A stretch of DNA of 64,000 nucleotides from Candidatus Woesearchaeota archaeon (GCA_018696595.1 JABHQW010000008.1:352001-416000), one strand, 5' to 3'. Numbered from the stretch's first letter, positions 29,314-52,270 are shown. A program made the numbers and translations. The notes: generated by a model not told the origin, from the letters alone.

Positions 29314-31077
29314 ATGAAGAAAAGAATAGCTATAATCGATAAGGAGAAATGTCATCCTAGTGAATGTGGAGATTATCTTTGTGCTAAATTGTGCCCTGTT
29401 AATAGAACTGGAACAGATTGTGTCTTGCCACATGAAATACATAAAAAAGCAAAGATTGACGAATTACTTTGTACTGGCTGTTCTATTTGCTCAAACAGAT
29501 GTCCTTATCAAGCAATCCAAATTATTAATCTTCCAGAAGCATTAAACAAAGAACCAGTTCATCGGTTCGGAGAGAATGCTTTTGAATTATTTTCTTTACC
29601 AACACCAATCTTTGGTCAAGTTACAGGAATCTTGGGAAAGAATGGTATTGGGAAAACTACTGCTTTACAAATTCTGGCAGGATTATTAAAGCCAAACTTA
29701 GGCAACTATGAAAAAGAAACTGATTTTAAGGATGTTATCAATTATTTCAAAGGCAGTGAGACTCAGAAATTCTTAATGAAAATGCATGTTGGCGATATCA
29801 AATTATCTTACAAATTGCAACAAGTTGATTTGATTGCTAAACAGTTTACTGGAACCGTTCGTGAGTTATTAGAAAAAGTTGATGAAAAAAAACAATTAAA
29901 TGAAGTTGCTCAAGAATTACAATTAACAAGATTCTTAGATACTCCAGTTAACAAAATTTCTGGTGGAGAATTACAACGAGTAGCAATTGCTGCTTCTGTA
30001 TTAAAGAAAGCTAACATTTATTTCTTTGACGAACCTAGCTCTTATCTTGATATTAAGCAAAGGGTTAACGTTTCTAAATTTATTAGAAATCTAGCAGATG
30101 AAGATACTTCAATCATCGTTATTGAACACGATTTAATTATTCTTGATTACATGACAGATCTATTGAATTTAATGTACGGGCAAGAATCTGCTTATGGTAT
30201 TGTTTCTGGGATCAAGAATTCTAGGGAAGGAATCAATGCTTTCTTGGAAGGTTTTCTGAAAGAAGAAAATATTCGTTTTAGGTCTTATCCTATTAAGTTT
30301 GAGAAAGTTCAAGATAGACAAGTGGGAACTCAACAAAAACTAATTTCTTGGAAACATTTAAGCAAGAAGTTAGGGAACTTTATTTTGGAATCTGAATCTG
30401 GAGAATTATATAAAAACGAGATTATTGGTGTTTTAGGGGAAAATGGAATTGGTAAAACTAGTTTTGTAAAAGTATTAGCGGGATTAATTAAACCAGACTC
30501 TGGCGAGATTGATTCTGAAATTAAAGTTGCTTACAAACCTCAATACTTAGAAACTGCTTCAGATGAATTAGTAATGCAATATTTAGATGATGCAGTTCAA
30601 CAGTATCAAAACCAATTAATTAAACCATTAGATATGGAAAGATTAATGATGAAAAAATTGTCTGAACTTTCTGGTGGAGAATTACAAAAAGTATCTATTG
30701 TTAAATGTCTGAGTGAAGATGCAGAATTGTTTCTTCTGGATGAGCCTTCTGCTTATCTAGACGTTGAACAACGATTATTAATCTCTAAAGTAATTAAAAG
30801 TTTAACTGCAGAAAGAGAGATTACTGTTTTAGTGGTAGATCACGATTTAATGTTTTTAGATTATTTGTCTGATCGACTTGCTGTATTTACAGGAGAACCC
30901 GCTAAATCTGGTTTATTACAAGGTCCTTTTGATATGGTTGAAGGAATGAATTTGTTTTTAGAAGAGTTAGGCATTTCATTACGTAGAGATCCAAATTCGC
31001 ATCGGCCTCGGATTAACAAAGCCGGAAGTGTAAAGGATCGAGAACAACGTGCAGAAGGAAAGTTGTATTATAACTAA
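29314..31077 (+). CDS. rli: ribosome recycling ATPase ABCE1/RLI
   Basis: N-terminal FeS Cys motifs; two ABC domains (GKNGIGKT, GENGIGKT, SGGELQ). Confidence 0.96.
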   Translation: MKKRIAIIDKEKCHPSECGDYLCAKLCPVNRTGTDCVLPHEIHKKAKIDELLCTGCSICSNRCPYQAIQIINLPEALNKEPVHRFGENAFELFSLPTPIFGQVTGILGKNGIGKTTALQILAGLLKPNLGNYEKETDFKDVINYFKGSETQKFLMKMHVGDIKLSYKLQQVDLIAKQFTGTVRELLEKVDEKKQLNEVAQELQLTRFLDTPVNKISGGELQRVAIAASVLKKANIYFFDEPSSYLDIKQRVNVSKFIRNLADEDTSIIVIEHDLIILDYMTDLLNLMYGQESAYGIVSGIKNSREGINAFLEGFLKEENIRFRSYPIKFEKVQDRQVGTQQKLISWKHLSKKLGNFILESESGELYKNEIIGVLGENGIGKTSFVKVLAGLIKPDSGEIDSEIKVAYKPQYLETASDELVMQYLDDAVQQYQNQLIKPLDMERLMMKKLSELSGGELQKVSIVKCLSEDAELFLLDEPSAYLDVEQRLLISKVIKSLTAEREITVLVVDHDLMFLDYLSDRLAVFTGEPAKSGLLQGPFDMVEGMNLFLEELGISLRRDPNSHRPRINKAGSVKDREQRAEGKLYYN

Positions 31078-32108
31078 GAACTAGTTCTCATTGCATTATA
31101 ATCTACTAGATTAAGAACATAATCAGAAACTTTCCAATTGATTCTTGTAAACTCTCCAAAATGATCTCCACCGGCTTGGGCTGATGCTTCTTTATCAAGA
31201 AGTGCAATTTCTACTTCTGGGGCAACAATCTCAGAAACATCACGATGACGATATTCTCCACTCCAAATACTTTTGGTGTGGGCAACAAATCTTGGGATCA
31301 TCGAGTAACGATTACCTCCAACTGCCCTAATGTGCATTTTCCCTTCTGATCTTGCTTTTTTTGCATAAGGAAAACCCACAAAATTATAACCAAAATAAGG
31401 GGTCGTTCCTGCTACTAAAGCATGGATTTGATTTTCTTGTAAGAATCTTTCCCCATCTCCAAGAGGAAGCCTCATAAATTCTATGTCTTCTTCAAAAATT
31501 TCAGCAAGTTCTGCCCCTTGTGGAAAACTAATTTCAAATTTTAGTTTTTTACCAAAAAAGATTTCTGTAGCAGAAGAAGGGATTGTGCTAAAGTATCCTA
31601 CTAAACCGTTCAATGGGCTTTGTTTGTACTTTTTTAAAATGATTCCATCCCAACCAGCCCCGGTTAACATAGAATAAGTTTTCTCTTTTTCTCCTTGAGG
31701 GGTGGTTCCAGTAATCTCAATTAACGGGACTTGTATTGTTGGTAATTCATTAACATCTGTTTCTAAAATCATTTCTAATTGTTCTAAATGGTCTTTACCT
31801 GCACCTAATTCATAAGAAATAGCATTACCCGTTCCCAATTTTAATATTGCAAATAATTGTTTGTTAAATGACAAACCTAATTCTTCACATAAAAGAATGA
31901 ATTTATTACTTTCATATCTGATTGTTCCATCTCCTCCTCCAAGAGTAATTACTTGTGGTTTATCCTGTAAAGTTTTTCTTCTAGGATAATTTCCTGAATA
32001 TATTTTAACTCTATAGTCTTCAGCAAATCTTTGCTCAATTGCATTAATTATCTTCGGGGTGAATCTTCCAGCTCTTGGATTTAATTTAGCTACTAGGCTT
32101 TCTACCAT
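31074..32108 (-). CDS. diacylglycerol/lipid kinase family protein
   Basis: GGGDGT and LGTGNA motifs; GD near the C-terminus. Confidence 0.75.
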   Translation of the reverse strand: MVESLVAKLNPRAGRFTPKIINAIEQRFAEDYRVKIYSGNYPRRKTLQDKPQVITLGGGDGTIRYESNKFILLCEELGLSFNKQLFAILKLGTGNAISYELGAGKDHLEQLEMILETDVNELPTIQVPLIEITGTTPQGEKEKTYSMLTGAGWDGIILKKYKQSPLNGLVGYFSTIPSSATEIFFGKKLKFEISFPQGAELAEIFEEDIEFMRLPLGDGERFLQENQIHALVAGTTPYFGYNFVGFPYAKKARSEGKMHIRAVGGNRYSMIPRFVAHTKSIWSGEYRHRDVSEIVAPEVEIALLDKEASAQAGGDHFGEFTRINWKVSDYVLNLVDYNAMRTSS

Positions 32109-32164
32109 ATTTCCATTTAGAAACGTTTACTTTTATAAAAATAATGAAAAAGAAAAATAAAAAA

Positions 32165-32551
32165 TTAAGAAACGATTACGCTACCTTGCATTCCTGGATG
32201 GAATTGGCAAAAGTATCTGTACTGTCCTGCTTCAGTAAAGGTGTGAGTTAATGATGTTGTTCCAATTGGAAGTTTCTCATCAAAATCACCATTTTCAAAA
32301 GTTACTGTATGCGCAGTAGAATCTTTGTTAACCCATTCTATAGTGTCACCAACTTTAAGATCTAAATCAATAGGCATGAATTGAGAATTCTCAATTGCTA
32401 CTTGGTAAACTTCTCCAGTTGCTACAACTGCAGTATTAGTTTCTTCTACTTCAACTACTTCTTCAACATTATCTTCTACTACTTCTGATCCACAAGCCAC
32501 TAATAGAAACATAACACTTAACAAAGCTATTAACCCTAATATTTTCTTCAT
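32165..32551 (-). CDS. plastocyanin/azurin-type cupredoxin lipoprotein
   Basis: ATG 32551 after GGAGG; lipobox LVA-C; HTVT and CQFHPGM type-1 copper ligands. Confidence 0.88.
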   Translation of the reverse strand: MKKILGLIALLSVMFLLVACGSEVVEDNVEEVVEVEETNTAVVATGEVYQVAIENSQFMPIDLDLKVGDTIEWVNKDSTAHTVTFENGDFDEKLPIGTTSLTHTFTEAGQYRYFCQFHPGMQGSVIVS

Positions 32552-32591
32552 TTTATTGTCCTCCAAAATATATAAGGTTAAATATTGACGT

Positions 32592-33362
32592 TTATTTAAA
32601 TATCTTTCTCCAATCTTCCTTATAAAACTTAACAAAGAGATATAGTGCAACAATTACCATAATCAAACTAAACCATTGGCCAATCGTTAATTTGAACCAT
32701 AAAACGTCTTCGCGATAGAAATCTACTAAGAATCTTCCTAATCCTTCCCAAAAAACGAAGTTCAGAAATATAAACCCTGGCTTAAATGATTTCCAGAATG
32801 TTAGCAAGAAAAGCCAACCAGTAACAATAAATCTTTTCCCTGCTGCGTATAATGTAGATGGGTGCCTACAACCATCATATCCTTTAAACAATACGCACCA
32901 CTTACCTTGGAATGGTCTACCAACTAATTCTCCATTAATGAAATTAGCAATTCTTCCCAAAGCTAAAGCAAACAAGGCGGGAATTGACATAGCATCAGCC
33001 AATTTCCAGAAATTAAATCTATGTTTCTTACAATAAATGTAAGCTGCAACTACAATTCCTACAAATCCACCGTGAAAACTCATCCCTCCTTCCCAAAATT
33101 TGAGAAAGTTAAATGGATTTGACAAGTAGTAACTTGGTTGCCAAAAAACTTCAAATACTCTTGATCCGATTAATACTCCGACCATCAACCAAAATGCAAA
33201 ATCCCAGATCTGTTCTTTGTTTAATTCTAGTTTGCCTTTTTTTCTAAGATAATATAACCAAGCAATAGACAGAAAGAATCCCAGGACATACATTAGCCCG
33301 TACCATCTGATTTCTAACGGCCCTAAGGAAAGTAATGTTGGGTTAAGATTGTGAATGTACAT
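32592..33362 (-). CDS. lgt: prolipoprotein diacylglyceryl transferase
   Basis: IRWYGLMY, GGMSFHGG, GRIANFINGE..GR, HPSTLY, RFLVDFYR. Confidence 0.95.
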   Translation of the reverse strand: MYIHNLNPTLLSLGPLEIRWYGLMYVLGFFLSIAWLYYLRKKGKLELNKEQIWDFAFWLMVGVLIGSRVFEVFWQPSYYLSNPFNFLKFWEGGMSFHGGFVGIVVAAYIYCKKHRFNFWKLADAMSIPALFALALGRIANFINGELVGRPFQGKWCVLFKGYDGCRHPSTLYAAGKRFIVTGWLFLLTFWKSFKPGFIFLNFVFWEGLGRFLVDFYREDVLWFKLTIGQWFSLIMVIVALYLFVKFYKEDWRKIFK

Positions 33363-33454
33363 GAAGTTTTGTTATCCGTTAACATTTATTAATTCTTTGG
33401 TATTAAAAATGATTAGAGGTTAATTTTAAATACTTCCATCTCTTACTTTTATAC

Positions 33455-34828
33455 ATGAGAAAACTATGGTTTCTTTCAGTACTACTAATTTCTCTATTTC
33501 TATTAAGTGGTTGTACATCTGTTAAAGACACATTAGGTATGTGTGGCCATTACTGTGTCAACAAAGATTGTGGAACTGAAATAAACAATTGTGGTCAAGA
33601 GATTGATTGTGGTGGTTGTACTGGTGGACATTCTTGTGAAGATGGTATGTGTGAATTAAATCCAGAAATCAAAGATAGTGACCCCATTCTAGTACGTCCA
33701 AAAATAGACCTAAATCTTCTTTTATCAAATCAAAGAATAACTAATGCCATAGAACTAAATCCTCTAACTACCACAAATAATTATCAGAAAATTTTGAATG
33801 AGAAAATAAGTGATCTTGAAGTTGGAAATACGGCTCATTGGAATAACTTTAGAAGTCAAGCCAATTGGCAAGAAGAGGATCTATTAGAATTATATTTACA
33901 AAAAGTTGCTTTTTCTTTATATATTGAAGCTAATGCTTTAACTCCTTGGAGTATCCTTGATTATTCGGATGAACACCTCAACTTATTGCTTTCAGATCTG
34001 TATGTTGATGATGTTTTAACTGATGTTCCCATGTACCAAAATGGAGGATATTACAAAGCCAGGAAACAATCTGCATTTAATGGTGACTCTCTAATTGCCT
34101 TCAAATATATACAAGAAACGAAACAACAGTATCCACATCTAAAAGTTAAAACCCATAAAGACTTGCTTGATTTGATTATAATTAGAATGCGTGATGATGA
34201 ATGGGTCCATTTTGGAAGTGAAGCAGAAGGATGTTCAGATTTTCCTTCTGAGGTTATGAATTATGATTTTCAATGTTTATTAGATCTTAAGAAAGGAAGT
34301 GATCCACTTACTGCTCATTTTATATTTGCATTATTACAATCAAATAATATTCCCTCGAAAGAAGTTCCAGTTTATTTGGGTGGACATACCGGAATTATTT
34401 ATCCAACTCTGGATTTAACTATGGAGGGGAATGCTGTTTATTCTGTGTTAAAAAAAGGAATATTGACCACAAACAAATTGCCAATTGATAACACTTATTT
34501 GGATCTAAATACTTATCTGATTTGGGATCAAGTTCCAACTTGTCAGGCTTTTTATTTTACAACTAACAAAAACGTTTTAGATTACTTCCAATATATTGGC
34601 GATCCTCAATGGAATACAGACATTATTACAACTTACTGTTACACATTTATGGGGAATGCGCCAGGAGAATATTTAAGAGAACTAATAAAAACAGGATTTC
34701 TTGCTGAAGGTGAGCCTATGAACTGTCAAGATACAGATCCTTCTAAGGATAATTATCAAGCTCCTCCATTAACTGAAGAAGAATTAGACTTTTATCTTAA
34801 TCAGATCGCACAAATAGCAAATTGCTAA
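33455..34828 (+). CDS. lipoprotein with Cys-rich N-terminal module and possible transglutaminase-like domain
   Basis: Lipobox LSG-C; CG.EINNCGQEIDCGGC module; ALLQSNNIP...GHTG. Confidence 0.75.
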   Translation: MRKLWFLSVLLISLFLLSGCTSVKDTLGMCGHYCVNKDCGTEINNCGQEIDCGGCTGGHSCEDGMCELNPEIKDSDPILVRPKIDLNLLLSNQRITNAIELNPLTTTNNYQKILNEKISDLEVGNTAHWNNFRSQANWQEEDLLELYLQKVAFSLYIEANALTPWSILDYSDEHLNLLLSDLYVDDVLTDVPMYQNGGYYKARKQSAFNGDSLIAFKYIQETKQQYPHLKVKTHKDLLDLIIIRMRDDEWVHFGSEAEGCSDFPSEVMNYDFQCLLDLKKGSDPLTAHFIFALLQSNNIPSKEVPVYLGGHTGIIYPTLDLTMEGNAVYSVLKKGILTTNKLPIDNTYLDLNTYLIWDQVPTCQAFYFTTNKNVLDYFQYIGDPQWNTDIITTYCYTFMGNAPGEYLRELIKTGFLAEGEPMNCQDTDPSKDNYQAPPLTEEELDFYLNQIAQIANC

Positions 34829-34923: not shown

Positions 34924-35187
34924 ATGGAAGATAAAGAAAAAAGTTATTCTAAAGAATTACTAGGTAAAACAATAGTTTCAAAGTCAGGAAAGAAGTTTGG
35001 CGAAGTTGGCGATTTAATTTTTGAAGTTGGTTCTGGTGAACTGATTCATATGCAACTTAGACATCCTACCTCTTACATTGATAAGATGGAACTAGAAAAA
35101 ACTAAAGAAGGAAGTATTTTAATCCCCTTCTCCGCAGTTATTGCTTCTGGTGACTTTATTGTTGTAGCAGAAGAAGATATAATTTAA
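34924..35187 (+). CDS. PRC-barrel domain protein (possibly CdpB-like, cell-division associated)
   Basis: GKTIVSKSGKKFGEVGDL...IPFSAVIASGDFIVV; GGTGA SD. Confidence 0.88.
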   Translation: MEDKEKSYSKELLGKTIVSKSGKKFGEVGDLIFEVGSGELIHMQLRHPTSYIDKMELEKTKEGSILIPFSAVIASGDFIVVAEEDII

Positions 35188-35710: not shown

Positions 35711-37435
35711 ATGACGGCTCACCATAAATCAGAAGACTTAAATTTACATTCTTTAAAGGCTATTTCTCCAATTGATGGTAGACATAGATTAATGACCGAA
35801 CCATTGGCAGATTGGTTCTCAGAATTTGCATTGTTTAAGTACAGGCTTCATATGGAAGTTGAGTACTTAATTGCATTATCGGAAAATGAACCGTTCAATG
35901 CAGTAAGAAATTTCACTTTAGAAGAAAAAGATTTCTTAAAAGGAATTGTGCGTAACTTTACTTTACAGGATGCACAAGTAATTCAGAACATTGATCGGTT
36001 TGGTTATCAAGAAATGAAACCGACTAACCATGATTGTAAATCTGTAGAATATTTTCTTAAAAGAAAACTTGAAGAAAGTTCATTAACAGATGTAAAAGAA
36101 TTTGTTCATTTTGGTTTAACTTCAGAAGATATGAATAATATTGCTCACAATTGTATGATTAATGGAGCATTAAATCAACATTATATCCCAAATTTAGTTT
36201 CTTTACTGGATGAATTAAAAGGACTAGCAGAATCAGAAAAGTCTACCGCTATGTTAAGTAGAACTCATGGCCAACCGGCAACTCCAACAACAGTTGGTAA
36301 AGAGATGGCTAATTATCTTGACAGATTAAGAAAACAGTTAATCAAACTTAAACAATTTAAATTACCTGCAAAATGTAATGGTGCTGTTGGCAATCATGCT
36401 GCCCAATATTTTGCTGCAGGAGAAGTTAATTGGATGTCTTTTACTGAAAAATTTATCACAGATCTTGGTTTTGAAGCAAATTTAATGAGTACACAAATTG
36501 AGTTTCATGATGGTTTAACAGAATTGTTTAGCATTATGATTAGTATCAATAATATTCTAAAAGATTTAGCGATGGACTTTTGGACTTATATCTCTTTGGG
36601 ATATTTACAACAACAAAAGATTATTCATGAAGTTGGTAGTTCAACAATGCCACATAAGATTAATCCTTGGCGGATGGAAGTTGCTGAAGGTAGTGTAGCA
36701 GAAGCAAACGCTAAGTTGATTGGATTTATCAACAAGTTGCAAGTTTCTAGATTACAAAGAGATTTGTCGGATCATGAAGCACAAAGAGCGATAGGAGTTG
36801 GGTTTGCTCATTCTTATTTAGTAGTTCTACATGTTTTAGAAGAATTAGAAAGATTACAGGTAAATAAGGAAAAAGTTTCTTCTGAACTGAAAGATTTTGG
36901 TAGTATTTTAACAGAAGCTGTTCAGACTTTACTGAGAAAAGAAGGGTACGAACAGCCTTATGAATTAATGAAAGATTTTTCTCGGGGCAGACATTGTACT
37001 GTTCAAGAACTGCACACTTTTGTTGACCAGTTAGATATTAAAGAAGAAACTAAATTGAAACTAAAACAATTAAGACCAGAGAATTATATTGGGTTGAGTA
37101 AAGAATTAACAGAGTTAGCAATTGGAAAATGGGAAGAGTTCAAAGAAGAATATGAAGAACCGTTACCTGCAGTAAGAAAAGTCTTCTTAGCCCCAGAAGT
37201 AAAGAACTTTGAGATTATCGAAAGATTAAAACAAATGGAGATTGAAGTTCTCGATGAACTTACTGAAGAAAAAGGTATTTTATACATTGGTCCAATCAAT
37301 GCTCAGTTTGAAGAAGCAAAAGAGAAAGGCTTTATTTGTGTGAATTACGATCCTAATCGAAAAACTAAGGCTGATTACAACATTGTTGATCTGGCAGAAT
37401 TGCCAGACTTGATTAATTCTTTTGGAGGTGACTAA
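35711..37435 (+). CDS. purB: adenylosuccinate lyase with degenerate HAD-like C-terminal extension
   Basis: AISPIDGR, HFGLTSED, RTHGQPA, GSSTMPHKINP. Confidence 0.95.
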   Translation: MTAHHKSEDLNLHSLKAISPIDGRHRLMTEPLADWFSEFALFKYRLHMEVEYLIALSENEPFNAVRNFTLEEKDFLKGIVRNFTLQDAQVIQNIDRFGYQEMKPTNHDCKSVEYFLKRKLEESSLTDVKEFVHFGLTSEDMNNIAHNCMINGALNQHYIPNLVSLLDELKGLAESEKSTAMLSRTHGQPATPTTVGKEMANYLDRLRKQLIKLKQFKLPAKCNGAVGNHAAQYFAAGEVNWMSFTEKFITDLGFEANLMSTQIEFHDGLTELFSIMISINNILKDLAMDFWTYISLGYLQQQKIIHEVGSSTMPHKINPWRMEVAEGSVAEANAKLIGFINKLQVSRLQRDLSDHEAQRAIGVGFAHSYLVVLHVLEELERLQVNKEKVSSELKDFGSILTEAVQTLLRKEGYEQPYELMKDFSRGRHCTVQELHTFVDQLDIKEETKLKLKQLRPENYIGLSKELTELAIGKWEEFKEEYEEPLPAVRKVFLAPEVKNFEIIERLKQMEIEVLDELTEEKGILYIGPINAQFEEAKEKGFICVNYDPNRKTKADYNIVDLAELPDLINSFGGD

Positions 37436-37436
37436 A

Positions 37437-39698
37437 ATGGGAAACACATTTGCAATTTTAGGTGGACAATGGGGAGACGAAGGTAAAGGAAAATTTGTAG
37501 ATTGGGCAGCTAAGTATTTTGACATTTCTGCGAGAGCCACTGGTGGTAACAATGCAGGACATACTGTTTATGTTGGCGAAGAGAAACATATTTTTCATTT
37601 AATCCCTTCTGCAATTACTTGGAAGAATGTTGATTGTCTTTTAGGAAATGGAATGGTGATTGATCCATTAATTCTGTTAAAAGAAATTGATACTTTAGAA
37701 CAAAAAGGTTACACTGTTAATAATCTTTACATCTCTGGAAGAGCGCATATGATTTTACTTTACAACAAAGTCTTAGACAAATATAAAGAGAAATCAAAAG
37801 GAAAAAAGAAAGTTGGCACTACGGGAAGAGGTATTGGTCCAACTTATGCTGATAAAGCTTATTATACTGGAATCAGAATGAATGATCTGTTGGATAAAGA
37901 GTTGTTAAAAAGAAAAGTTAGCCTACATGTTTGGGAAAAGTTTGGTTCATTTAAGAAATTACATGAAGATGATGATGAAATAATTATGGGGGCTTTAAGA
38001 GATTCTCTTCCTGAAGATACATTTTTTGATAAATGGAGAAGTAAACTACTCGATTTGGGAAATAATATTAATCTGAACAAGTTAACAAATTTCTTTGTTG
38101 ATATTTATTTTTCTGTTGGTAAAATATTAAAGAAACATATTACAGATACTCGGCTGATGTTAGAATCTAATGCCAAAGATGGTAAAAGTATTCTTTTAGA
38201 AGGTGCACAGGGGTTATTGTTAGATGTTGATCACGGAACTTATCCTTTTGTGACTTCTTCTAACGCTTCCATTGGTGGTTTGAAAACCGGTTTAGGTTTA
38301 CCGCACTTAGATATTGCTTATAGTGTTGTTAAAGCTTATACTACAAGAGTCGGTGAAGGCCCTTTTGCTACAGAACTATTTGATGATGTTGGTAACTATT
38401 TAAGAGAAAAAGGTGGCGAGTTTGGTTCTACTACTGGGAGACCAAGAAGATGTGGTTGGCATGATACTGTTTTAACAAGACATACTGCATTAATTAATGG
38501 GCCAAACATTGTTATTAGTAAATTGGATGTTTTAACGGGTTTGGAGAAACTTAAAATTTGTAATTCTTACAAATATCTTGGACCTAAGAAAGTTTTTAAT
38601 GGCGAAATTTACTTCACTGGAAAAATTTTGAAAGATTTCCCTGCTGATGGGTTTTTGTTAGAACATTGTGTTCCTCATCAATGGGTTGAAATGCCTGGCT
38701 GGACTGAAGACATAACTAATGTTAAAGAATATAGTCTTTTGCCTATTAATGCCCAGAATTATTTACGTAAAATTGAAGAGTTGGGGAATGTTGAAATTAG
38801 TTTGGTTAGCATTGGTCCAAAAAGAGAACAGATGATCGTTATGCCAGGAAGATGGAACTTAGAAGTCAAACAAGAAAAAGTTTCTTCTTCTTCTGTAAGT
38901 GAACCTGTAGAACAACCAATAGAAGAGAGAGAAACATTTGTAGAACCAACTGTTAATGTTGAAACAGAGTCTCAACTAGAAACCAGAACAGAAATTAAAA
39001 CAGAACCTGAAGAAGACACAAAAATAAAAGCAATCATTTATGACATGGATAATACTTTAGTTAATACTGATGGCTTTGTACTTGGTCATTTAAGAAGAAC
39101 GGCATTAAGAGTTTGTCAAGACATTCCATTTACAGTTCCAAGTGATGAAGAAATTAAAAGAGTACAAAAAGAAAATCTTCCTTTTGAGGATATCTTTGTA
39201 AAACTATTTCCAAATCCGTTGGGCTATATTCGTGATGAACCATTATCAGGCGTGGTTTTAGCAAAATACCGGGAAGATGCAAAAGAAATTCCTTTTTCTT
39301 CAACACTTGGCGGGATAGATCTTGTTGAAACTATGTCTAAACAAGAAGTTGTTCAAGGAATTGTGACAAACCGAGTTCGGATGGCTCGTCATCGGTTAGA
39401 TCAAGCTGGTTATAGTGATTTTTCTTTTATTGTTCAACCAGAATCTAAAGAACAGAGTAAACCAAATCCTCTTTGTTTAAGACCAGCGTTAGACTTTTTG
39501 CAAGAGAAGAATATTTCTAAGTCTGAGGTTCTTTCTGTCGGCGATCATCCTGACGATTATCTTGCTGCAAGAGATGCAGGAATTACATTCATTGCTGTTT
39601 TAACTGGAGAAAGCACCAAAGGAGATTTTATTAGTGCGGGTTTAGATGCAAATATGATTGTTGATGATCTTGGAGAATTGAAAGAAATAATAAATTAA
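37437..39698 (+). CDS. purA: adenylosuccinate synthetase fused to a C-terminal HAD phosphatase
   Basis: QWGDEGKGK, GNNAGHT, EGAQG, YTTRVG, TTGRPRRCGW; then DMDNT, KPNP, VGDHPDD; GGAGGTGA SD. Confidence 0.95.
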   Translation: MGNTFAILGGQWGDEGKGKFVDWAAKYFDISARATGGNNAGHTVYVGEEKHIFHLIPSAITWKNVDCLLGNGMVIDPLILLKEIDTLEQKGYTVNNLYISGRAHMILLYNKVLDKYKEKSKGKKKVGTTGRGIGPTYADKAYYTGIRMNDLLDKELLKRKVSLHVWEKFGSFKKLHEDDDEIIMGALRDSLPEDTFFDKWRSKLLDLGNNINLNKLTNFFVDIYFSVGKILKKHITDTRLMLESNAKDGKSILLEGAQGLLLDVDHGTYPFVTSSNASIGGLKTGLGLPHLDIAYSVVKAYTTRVGEGPFATELFDDVGNYLREKGGEFGSTTGRPRRCGWHDTVLTRHTALINGPNIVISKLDVLTGLEKLKICNSYKYLGPKKVFNGEIYFTGKILKDFPADGFLLEHCVPHQWVEMPGWTEDITNVKEYSLLPINAQNYLRKIEELGNVEISLVSIGPKREQMIVMPGRWNLEVKQEKVSSSSVSEPVEQPIEERETFVEPTVNVETESQLETRTEIKTEPEEDTKIKAIIYDMDNTLVNTDGFVLGHLRRTALRVCQDIPFTVPSDEEIKRVQKENLPFEDIFVKLFPNPLGYIRDEPLSGVVLAKYREDAKEIPFSSTLGGIDLVETMSKQEVVQGIVTNRVRMARHRLDQAGYSDFSFIVQPESKEQSKPNPLCLRPALDFLQEKNISKSEVLSVGDHPDDYLAARDAGITFIAVLTGESTKGDFISAGLDANMIVDDLGELKEIIN

Positions 39699-44031: not shown

Positions 44032-44388
44032 ATGAGAAAGGTATTAATTGTTTCGTTGGCTTTGTTAACTGTATTTCTAGTTTCTTGTGGAAATACAGGG
44101 AATGGTATAGCTGGGTCAACTAACTTAGATGCATTTGCAGAATGTTTAGCTGAGAATGGTGCTACTATGTATGGTGCAGAATGGTGTAGTCATTGTAAAG
44201 ATCAAAAAGCAATGTTTGGAAGTTCTTTCAAGAATGTAGATTATGTTGAATGTACTGTTGAACAACAAAAATGTGTGGAATCTGGCATTTCGGGTTATCC
44301 TAGTTGGGTGTTTTCCGATGGGACCATTTTAGCAGGAGTACAACAATTCTCAACATTGGCAAAGAAGACGGGTTGTGTTTTGAACTGA
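44032..44388 (+). CDS. thioredoxin-like lipoprotein
   Basis: Lipobox LVS-C; YGAEWCSHC; GYPSW; GAGGTGA SD. Confidence 0.85.
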   Translation: MRKVLIVSLALLTVFLVSCGNTGNGIAGSTNLDAFAECLAENGATMYGAEWCSHCKDQKAMFGSSFKNVDYVECTVEQQKCVESGISGYPSWVFSDGTILAGVQQFSTLAKKTGCVLN

Positions 44389-51288: not shown

Positions 51289-51322
51289 AATAAATATTTA
51301 ATAAAAAATGAGGCTGATATAT

Positions 51323-52270
51323 ATGAAAAAGATAATTTTAATGTTAAGTTTATTGGTAATTGCAATGTTTTTAGTTGGTTGTACTGGGGAAGTTTCTGAT
51401 GAAGAACTCAATGCTGAATTGGAAGAACTCTCTGATGAAGAGTTTCTTGATGTTATTTCTGATGAAGAACCCGGTGCTTTAGCAGGACAAGCTCGTGCTA
51501 TACCTATAAGTAGAGTAAGATCAAAAATTAAAAAATTAACCTGGACATGTACTGAAAGTGATGGACAAGTTATTTATGATTCTTCTTTTGGTTCCAAGTT
51601 AATGGAAAGAAATATGTGTTTAGGTAATAATCTTAATGTGATTTACTGTGATGGAAATGAACTGAGGTGGGACAAACTTGCTGTTTGCAACAATGGTTGT
51701 GAAAATGGCGCTTGTATTGGGGAGTTTCCAAATAATAAACTTACGTTGTACCAAAATAATGTTTACAAGGCCATTATAAAAGCAGAGGGGACCAGTTATC
51801 CTTTCTATTTTGATATTATAAAAGAAGAATTAACGTTAACTTATTCAGGCAATAATGTAGCTTATAAATTAGAAAAGTCAGCAAATGGCAATTATGAGGA
51901 TAATTTTAAGATTGGTGGTGTATCTTATTCTGTACTTTTAGATTTTAGTATTATTAATCAAACTAAGATTGTTTTAAATAATTGGCCTGGGACTGATGGA
52001 ATGATGAAATCTGCATTATACTTAGATGATACCTACTCTAATTCTTTCAAATTAAAAGGAACCAGTAACTCTTATTATTTTGATTTTGAAGAAGAGAAAT
52101 TGATATTTAATTATTGGGAGAATAATGTAATCAAAAAGTTAGCAATGGAAAAATTTGGTGATGTGTATGTTGGTACTTTTAAAGTTGGCGGAATGTCTTA
52201 TCCAGTAACTGTGGACTTTAGTTTTGATTCTCCTGTGATGACTTTGTTTGGTTGGCCAGGAACTTCATAA
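51323..52270 (+). CDS. lipoprotein with two tandem ~88-aa beta-rich repeats
   Basis: MKKIIL...lipobox LVG-C; both repeats end in WPGT. Confidence 0.78.
   Translation: MKKIILMLSLLVIAMFLVGCTGEVSDEELNAELEELSDEEFLDVISDEEPGALAGQARAIPISRVRSKIKKLTWTCTESDGQVIYDSSFGSKLMERNMCLGNNLNVIYCDGNELRWDKLAVCNNGCENGACIGEFPNNKLTLYQNNVYKAIIKAEGTSYPFYFDIIKEELTLTYSGNNVAYKLEKSANGNYEDNFKIGGVSYSVLLDFSIINQTKIVLNNWPGTDGMMKSALYLDDTYSNSFKLKGTSNSYYFDFEEEKLIFNYWENNVIKKLAMEKFGDVYVGTFKVGGMSYPVTVDFSFDSPVMTLFGWPGTS

Follow-up and report, generated by a model that had tools for sequence, protein, structure and literature searches.

Three described systems bear on the lipoprotein diacylglyceryl transferase gene reported here. In the Lgt protein of Escherichia coli (PDB 5AZB/5AZC), Y80 contacts H103, residues E202, Y235 and E243 form part of a buried hydrogen-bond network, and two of them, E202 and Y235, border the pocket for the glycerol backbone of the lipid donor, Y235 being hydrogen-bonded to the C3 hydroxyl; mutants Y80F and Y80Q are inactive, Y235F/L/S and E243A/Q/R do not complement, Y235T is partially active and E202Q is tolerated (PMC4728403). 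In Firmicutes, Lgt and Lsp are accompanied by Lit, as known from the Bacillus cereus protein (7B0O), with its catalytic His85 and His153 and its conserved Phe157 and Trp162 (PMC8275575), and from the plasmid-borne lit2-lgt genes of Enterococcus and Listeria. In Archaea, the lipidation of lipoproteins has been assigned to AliA and AliB (arCOG02177 and arCOG02178) of Haloferax volcanii, in a study that predicted many lipoproteins in DPANN and according to which homologues of Lgt or Lsp had not been identified in archaea (PMC12462473, Nat Commun 2025). Besides that study, our literature search gave no paper in which Woesearchaeota or DPANN are linked with Lgt or a lipoprotein signal peptidase. 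We here analyze lgt in a 64,000-nt stretch of the genome of a tiny marine archaeon of the DPANN group, a Candidatus Woesearchaeota archaeon (GCA_018696595.1, JABHQW010000008.1:352001-416000), called the window below and used in its full length for all coordinates. Sequence comparisons suggest that the gene very probably encodes a working Lgt, which would catalyze the first step of lipoprotein maturation along a bacterial-type pathway, and that it has been inherited vertically after one ancient acquisition.

The window protein is a member of the known Lgt family, found in an unexpected domain of life. It matches PF01790 with 218.8 bits (cut-off 24.9) over profile positions 1-239 of 240 and the TIGR00544 equivalog with 182.3 bits (cut-off 118.9), and it matches E. 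coli Lgt (5azb) with an E-value of 4e-28. The likeness to the E. coli enzyme is one of full-length homology and includes the HGG and GR..NFINGEL.G motifs, whereas the archaeal protein is about 35 residues shorter (256 versus 291 amino acids). When 38 archaeal and 73 bacterial Lgt sequences were aligned to that of E. coli, whose numbering is followed here, the catalytic residues were found to be universal, and the window protein was seen to keep Y26, H103, R143, N146, N149, E151, G154, H196, R239 and R246. Y26, H103 (in HGG), R143, N146, E151, G154, R239 and R246 are present in 12 of 12 members of the family to which the organism belongs, and they vary hardly at all among the 119 closest homologues in the database. 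AliA and AliB perform the same task, the lipidation of the lipobox cysteine of exported archaeal proteins, but their similarity to Lgt is marginal (HHpred probability 29%, PMC12462473), whereas the window protein is a bona fide Lgt.

As in E. coli, lgt is present as a sole copy in a genome that also encodes LspA and many lipobox preproteins. LspA, for which the preliminary description of the locus had proposed a search, matches TIGR00077 with 107.6 bits (cut-off 73.95) and aligns with the Staphylococcus aureus enzyme 6RYO (E = 2.6e-18); both catalytic aspartates are kept, in VGNLLDRF and FNIADSA, and the protein is found in 38 of 40 relatives. A Lit-family protein (PF07314, 74.8 bits, cut-off 24) occurs in 33 of the 40, and its His, His, Phe and Trp align with His85, His153, Phe157 and Trp162 of B. 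cereus Lit (7B0O chain positions 104, 172, 176 and 181, which are the numbers of PMC8275575 plus 19). Lnt was searched for in the genome and not found. The enzyme set, the His/His dyad and the missing Lnt are thus shared with the Firmicute Lgt-Lsp-Lit system, whereas the archaeal genes are dispersed instead of paired. Genome-wide, 31 open reading frames (ORFs) conform to a strict signal-peptide and lipobox pattern, consisting of a basic N-terminal region, a hydrophobic segment and [LVIFM][ASTVIGL][GAS]C; cysteine makes up 1.35% of residues, yet it rivals leucine as the residue after the lipobox motif. The motifs read LVGC, LSGC or LAGC and are followed by acidic or Ser/Thr linkers, and those ORFs that matched a family encode typical exported proteins (cyclophilin, DUF3179, FtrD-like, CARDB, PKD and cadherin-like domains). 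At the genomic level a bacterial-type lipidation route in this archaeon is well supported. The proposal that the organism lipidates proteins in the bacterial way agrees with the presence of Lgt, LspA, a Lit-family protein and about 31 putative lipobox proteins. Two further lipobox proteins lie within the window, at 44032-44388 (+; LVSC) and 51308-52270 (+; LVGC), and neither has a Pfam match.

The host organism is an archaeon, as seen from its small-subunit ribosomal RNA (archaeal, 1407 bits), from RLI/ABCE1 adjoining the lgt locus and from CarS. The window lies within a 428-kb contig of a 1.19-Mb genome that is 97% complete with 0.38% contamination, and the G+C content (about 0.33) is uniform across the lgt locus and its surroundings. 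RLI was found 1-4 kb from lgt in 10 family loci and serves as a synteny anchor, which places lgt in a native archaeal context. A PRC-barrel gene, which forms a second anchor on the other side, is present in 7 relative loci and directly adjoins lgt in 6 of these, the comparison of neighborhoods covering 20 relative loci. The family's genera share the gene arrangement RLI-(kinase)-cupredoxin-Lgt-PRC barrel. Lgt scores above the Pfam cut-off in 38 of the 40 relatives and in 337 of 401 sampled genomes of the phylum, all at least 90% complete, with 40 of 41 in the organism's own family; the tally takes in six genomes flagged as unpublished (G410, G374, G262, G263, G349 and G338), all of which matched, and without them it stands at 331 of 395; nothing else claimed here depends on these six. 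In four archaeal control genomes neither Lgt nor LspA was found. The closest Lgt homologues (60-82% identity) are labelled Candidatus Woesearchaeota or Nanoarchaeota by NCBI, and the automatic annotation of these genes in public databases is already Lgt. Bacterial Lgt, sampled as plasmid-borne copies among the matches listed and from species-representative genomes, is at most about 41% identical among those matches.

A first FastTree tree built with representatives of 50% clusters was largely unresolved and was replaced by one of named genome loci. In the resulting maximum-likelihood tree of 111 rows, all 38 archaeal Lgt fall in one supported clade (Shimodaira-Hasegawa-like approximate likelihood ratio test, 95) together with 7 bacterial rows, among which a Firmicute/Rubrobacter group from plasmids, set on a long stem, is nested within the archaeal Lgt. 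This nesting is not robust: when the 38 archaeal rows were forced to be monophyletic, the log-likelihood was 57 units above that of the quick free search, and since the approximately unbiased test gave p=0.863 for the enforced clade, a single ancient origin is not rejected. The ratio of nonsynonymous to synonymous substitution rates (dN/dS) against the copy from the same genus is 0.06, compared with 0.08 for RLI, with dS near saturation. Given its presence in 337 of the 401 genomes, the possibility of a single clade and this low ratio, lgt is an old gene under selection, and not contamination. Origin from a mis-binned bacterial contig, or from a very recent transfer now decaying, has in its favor that Lgt is otherwise a bacterial hallmark and that the archaeal controls gave no match; it is nevertheless negligible in probability and was rejected, considering the length of the contig and the immediate vicinity of RLI, the uniform base composition, the synteny conserved across genera, the wide distribution, the dN/dS and the distance from the bacterial sequences. 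Contrary to the account in which archaea are without Lgt and Lsp, a whole DPANN radiation has retained the bacterial enzymes, which are strongly selected, and if the pathway operates as we suggest, the Lgt route would be a second, independent way to lipoproteins in Archaea. We also came across one Lgt on an 18-kb contig of a metagenome-assembled genome labelled uncultured Methanosarcinales archaeon (CAZTTX010000014.1), which nests among the Nanoarchaeota-type sequences and reflects either mis-binning or secondary transfer.

Several observations weigh against a working pathway of the bacterial kind. Lipoboxes also serve the archaeal AliA/AliB route. The Lit-family protein scores below NCBIfam levels (40.2 versus 400 bits for the NF051877 equivalog, 54.5 versus 74.8 for TIGR01906), which sets it apart from the Firmicute proteins. 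Searches of the genome found no GGGPS, no PlsC-type acyltransferase and no PlsY, nor was a DGGGPS-type UbiA found, so that lipid cores must be scavenged and the Lgt donor would be made from scavenged lipid. The hints as to its nature conflict, because CarS points to archaeal diethers, which are no substrate for Lit chemistry, while Lit points to an sn-2 ester. Finally, the window Lgt has W74, A173, E206 and D214 in place of four pocket residues of the E. coli enzyme (Y80W, E202A, Y235E and E243D). Since mutants at Y80, Y235 and E243 fail in E. coli, the canonical reaction cannot be assumed for the window protein. Thus, the statement in the preliminary description that Lgt retains its signature motifs holds for the catalytic and signature residues, but not for these four positions.

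The four replacements are not peculiar to one sequence. Throughout the family, W stands at position 80, A, S or D at 202, E or D at 235 and D at 243, and the same signature is carried by nearly all of the 119 closest homologues (W in 118, A or S in 113, E in 118 and D in 119). In bacteria, the corresponding residues are Y80 in 69 of 73 sequences, E or Q at 202 in 73 of 73, Y235 in 72 of 73 and E243 in 73 of 73, and most other Nanoarchaeota-type Lgt retain the canonical residues as well. The clade-specific replacement of four otherwise near-invariant pocket residues is a new observation. Compared with E. coli, then, the host is an archaeon without bacterial phospholipid synthesis genes, and the enzyme differs clade-wide by Y80W, E202A/S, Y235E and E243D. 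As this is the genome's only Lgt and is strongly constrained, we infer that the quadruple change represents an alternative working pocket rather than decay. The loss of a glutamate at 202 and the gain of one at 235 look like a relocated acid. The rewiring, in this clade, of residues whose substitution E. coli Lgt does not tolerate amounts to a natural experiment on donor recognition by Lgt, an antibiotic target in bacteria. Some family genomes (G007, G011 and other relatives; L020, L026) contain a second, divergent Lgt copy with about 36% identity, and the second copy of G011 has the canonical Y80, E202, Y235 and E243, so that both pocket types can coexist in one genome.

In the mechanism that we favor, Sec would export preproteins that have a signal peptide ending in [LVI]-x-[GAS]-C, Lgt would move the diradylglyceryl group of a phosphatidyl- or archaetidylglycerol donor to the cysteine thiol and free glycerol-1-phosphate, LspA would cleave before the modified cysteine, and the Lit-family protein may then shift an sn-2 acyl chain to the new N-terminus. 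Candidate enzymes for making the donor from scavenged lipid are CarS and a fusion protein. The fusion begins with a CDP-alcohol phosphatidyltransferase domain (PF01066, 94.5 bits), which is PgsA-like and has bacterial pgsA (TIGR00560, 81 bits) as its best NCBIfam match, and ends with a DAGK_cat/YegS-type lipid-kinase domain; it may be a one-protein device for lipid salvage. The enzyme set would fit a path from scavenged diradylglycerol via a kinase, a cytidylyltransferase and PgsA to a glycerol-phosphate-headed Lgt donor. The only UbiA-family gene of the genome resembles decaprenyl-phosphate phosphoribosyltransferase (NF008977, 225 bits) and overlaps a PMT_2-type glycosyltransferase gene, and so looks like part of a bacterial-style polyprenyl-phosphate sugar pathway, not like a DGGGP synthase.

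As to the chains of the donor, ester linkage is the possibility that we would tentatively place first, ether linkage is possible though rather doubtful, and mixed or other chains account for what remains. With esters, scavenged bacterial-type diacyl lipids would feed an Lgt-LspA-Lit pathway as in low-GC Firmicutes, giving lyso-form (N-acyl-S-monoacylglyceryl) lipoproteins, while the DAGK-like kinases would recycle diacylglycerol to the phosphatidylglycerol pool. The presence of Lgt, LspA and Lit together with the missing Lnt, the intact His pair of the Lit-family protein, the bacterial character of the PgsA-like domain and its fusion to a lipid kinase are all consistent with this, as are the fold of the kinase encoded in the window, which resembles SphK1, DgkB and YegS, and the position of the Firmicute plasmid Lgt group inside the archaeal clade in the free tree. 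That position, however, depends on a long stem, and enforcing archaeal monophyly removes it without loss of likelihood. PlsC and PlsY are missing, no CdsA was found in the genome besides CarS itself, which is of archaeal type, and the literature searched gave no lipid data on the lineage. With ethers, Lgt would have been retooled for archaetidylglycerol, an sn-2,3 diether supplied via CarS and the PgsA-like domain, so that proteins would receive an archaeol-type anchor and the rewired pocket would be an adaptation. An anchor of this type is known chemically for haloarchaeal halocyanin. The best NCBIfam match of CarS is the CDP-archaeol synthase equivalog (123 bits), and three of the four CDP-alcohol transferases in the genome are closest to archaetidylinositol-phosphate synthase, which, along with the lack of PlsC, PlsY and a separate CdsA, argues for ethers. 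Against them, the Lit-family protein with its intact dyad, present in most relatives, requires an sn-2 ester (PMC8275575), and a cell in which GGGPS and DGGGPS were not found cannot make diethers itself.

The pocket bears on the same question. Of the four changed residues, three lie in the buried network that surrounds the pocket for the donor glycerol, including the one that hydrogen-bonds the C3 hydroxyl (PMC4728403), and each of the changes is shared by 113-119 of the 119 closest homologues; on these grounds one could suppose that the quadruple change adapts a bacterial Lgt to archaeal-type glycerolipid donors, with their opposite stereochemistry and ether links. We regard such an adaptation as unlikely, considering that most other Nanoarchaeota-type Lgt have kept the canonical residues, which would make the rewiring unneeded merely for life in an archaeal host. 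In any case, the Lgt route would provide a handle on which membrane lipids are present in these uncultured symbionts, which are unable to build lipid cores.

Table 1. Genes at the lgt locus of the window and genes elsewhere in the genome that are discussed in the text. Locations without a prefix are window coordinates.
Feature	Location	Strand	Length (amino acids)	Remarks
lgt, prolipoprotein diacylglyceryl transferase homologue	32592..33362	-	256	PF01790, TIGR00544; sole copy in the genome
Lipobox type-1 copper (cupredoxin/amicyanin-like) protein	32165..32551	-	128	40 nt downstream of lgt
DAGK_cat-family soluble lipid-kinase-like protein	31074..32108	-	344	PF00781; 56 nt downstream of the cupredoxin gene
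RLI/ABCE1, archaeal/eukaryotic housekeeping gene	29314..31077	+		Fer4_RLI and two ABC_tran domains
Orphan lipobox protein with Cys-rich N-terminal stretch	33455..34828	+	457	Starts MRKLWFLSVLLISLFLLSGC; LLSGC20
PRC-barrel protein, second synteny anchor, other side of lgt	34924..35187	+		PF05239, 31.1 bits
LspA (Peptidase A8)	G000:C3:333263-333649			TIGR00077; about 51 kb from lgt, same contig
Lit-family protein	G000:C6:269377-269769		188	PF07314; contig 6
PgsA-like/lipid-kinase fusion protein	G000:C3:123477-124952 (= L011:499-1974)	-	491	
UbiA-family gene	L015:44-2295 (G000:C3, ~67.7-70.0 kb)			

Among the neighbors of lgt (Table 1), the cupredoxin gene is the one most clearly linked to it. 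The preliminary description had placed a lipobox cupredoxin directly downstream of lgt, and this is confirmed: the ORF, which is open over 32165-32653 (-), matches PF13473 with 51.6 bits and PF00127 with 40.5 bits, both above the cut-offs. Translation most likely begins at the ATG in position 32551 (MKKILGLIALLSVMFLLVAC), which is preceded by GGAGG at a distance of 8 nt, and from this start the signal peptide ends with the lipobox L-V-A-C20. The copper ligands are likely the histidine in STAHTV and the C, H and M in CQFHPGM. With its one cupredoxin domain, its copper loop CxxHxxM and its lipobox, the protein resembles the small blue copper proteins halocyanin and amicyanin, but it matches their equivalogs weakly and below the cut-offs (45.7 bits for amicyanin TIGR02657 and 26 bits for halocyanin). 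Halocyanin is itself a membrane-anchored lipobox copper protein. Of the 13 family loci examined, 8 have the cupredoxin gene next to lgt, sometimes with a gene for a small membrane protein in between, and the lipobox cysteine, on whose conservation the preliminary description made its reading depend, is kept in the window protein as well as in all 8 orthologues beside Lgt. As a conserved neighbor, the cupredoxin is the best-supported and probable substrate of Lgt; it would act as a membrane-anchored blue-copper electron carrier. The small membrane protein just mentioned (107-122 amino acids) lies between lgt and the cupredoxin gene in five relatives (L016, L017, L021, L025 and L027) and is missing in the window. 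In a relative from the same genus (L035), a rubrerythrin-like gene is inserted between the two, and an unrelated gene for 285 amino acids takes the place of the kinase gene. In bacteria, lgt and a TIGR01906 (Lit-family) gene are divergent neighbors on the Enterococcus faecium plasmid NZ_CP068245.1, an instance of lgt-lit pairing. Plasmid lgt-lit pairs are associated with copper resistance, to which the pairing of lgt with a cupredoxin gene would form a parallel.

The gene that the preliminary description had called DAG-kinase-like is present, and its product is a lipid-kinase-type protein according to the structural model, but a conserved partner of Lgt it is not, being found in only 5 of the 40 relatives. 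The protein matches PF00781 with 31.1 bits (cut-off 23.6), and the motifs GGDGT and LGTGNA are invariant in 15 homologues. A sequence search of the PDB gave nothing significant. Its AlphaFold model (predicted local distance difference test score 88.7) was matched by Foldseek to sphingosine kinase 1 (E = 5e-19), DgkB (2e-15), YegS (6e-11) and also AGK, NAD kinases matching more weakly. A functional module in which the kinase works with Lgt, for example in regenerating the donor lipid, might be suggested by its strand, the same as that of lgt and the cupredoxin gene, by the short distance to the latter, by its location in the same RLI-Lgt interval in three of the four other genomes that have it, and by its lipid-kinase fold, a second DAGK_cat domain being fused to PgsA elsewhere in the genome. 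We nevertheless consider such a module improbable because of the sporadic distribution, because the window query did not find the gene in two genomes of the same genus (81-84% complete) and because the by-product of Lgt is glycerol-1-phosphate and not diacylglycerol (PMC4728403). Moreover, the kinase is only 26-31% identical between genera, compared with 58-66% for Lgt, and it has no significant pairwise similarity to the PgsA-fused kinase domain. It rather appears to be a sporadic accessory gene of the RLI-lgt interval, an occasional passenger whose product would at most take part in lipid salvage. The 3′ end of the kinase gene is overlapped by the RLI/ABCE1 gene.

On the other side of lgt, the 457-amino-acid protein had been proposed as another candidate substrate. 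Its gene is divergent from lgt, with a spacer of 92 nt, and it does encode a lipobox; the protein could be a further, strain-specific substrate. It is nonetheless an orphan insertion. No Pfam or NCBIfam match was obtained, and a search of 5.8 billion proteins returned, besides the protein itself, a single homologue (40% identity), whose signal peptide is of the ordinary kind and lacks a lipobox. In none of the 20 relative loci, those from the same genus included, was the gene found beside lgt; in the same genus the PRC-barrel gene directly adjoins lgt.

Some minor features of the window may be added. TATA-like strings can be seen by eye upstream of the lgt, cupredoxin and 457-amino-acid protein genes, and these carry no weight in a genome of 33% G+C. 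At 37422-39698 (+) there is an unusually long adenylosuccinate-synthetase-like ORF of 758 amino acids, in which an acidic linker and, in the C-terminal part, a HAD-like DMDNT motif can be recognized. This ORF overlaps the end of a PurB-like one of 574 amino acids (35711-37435), likewise extended at the C-terminus.

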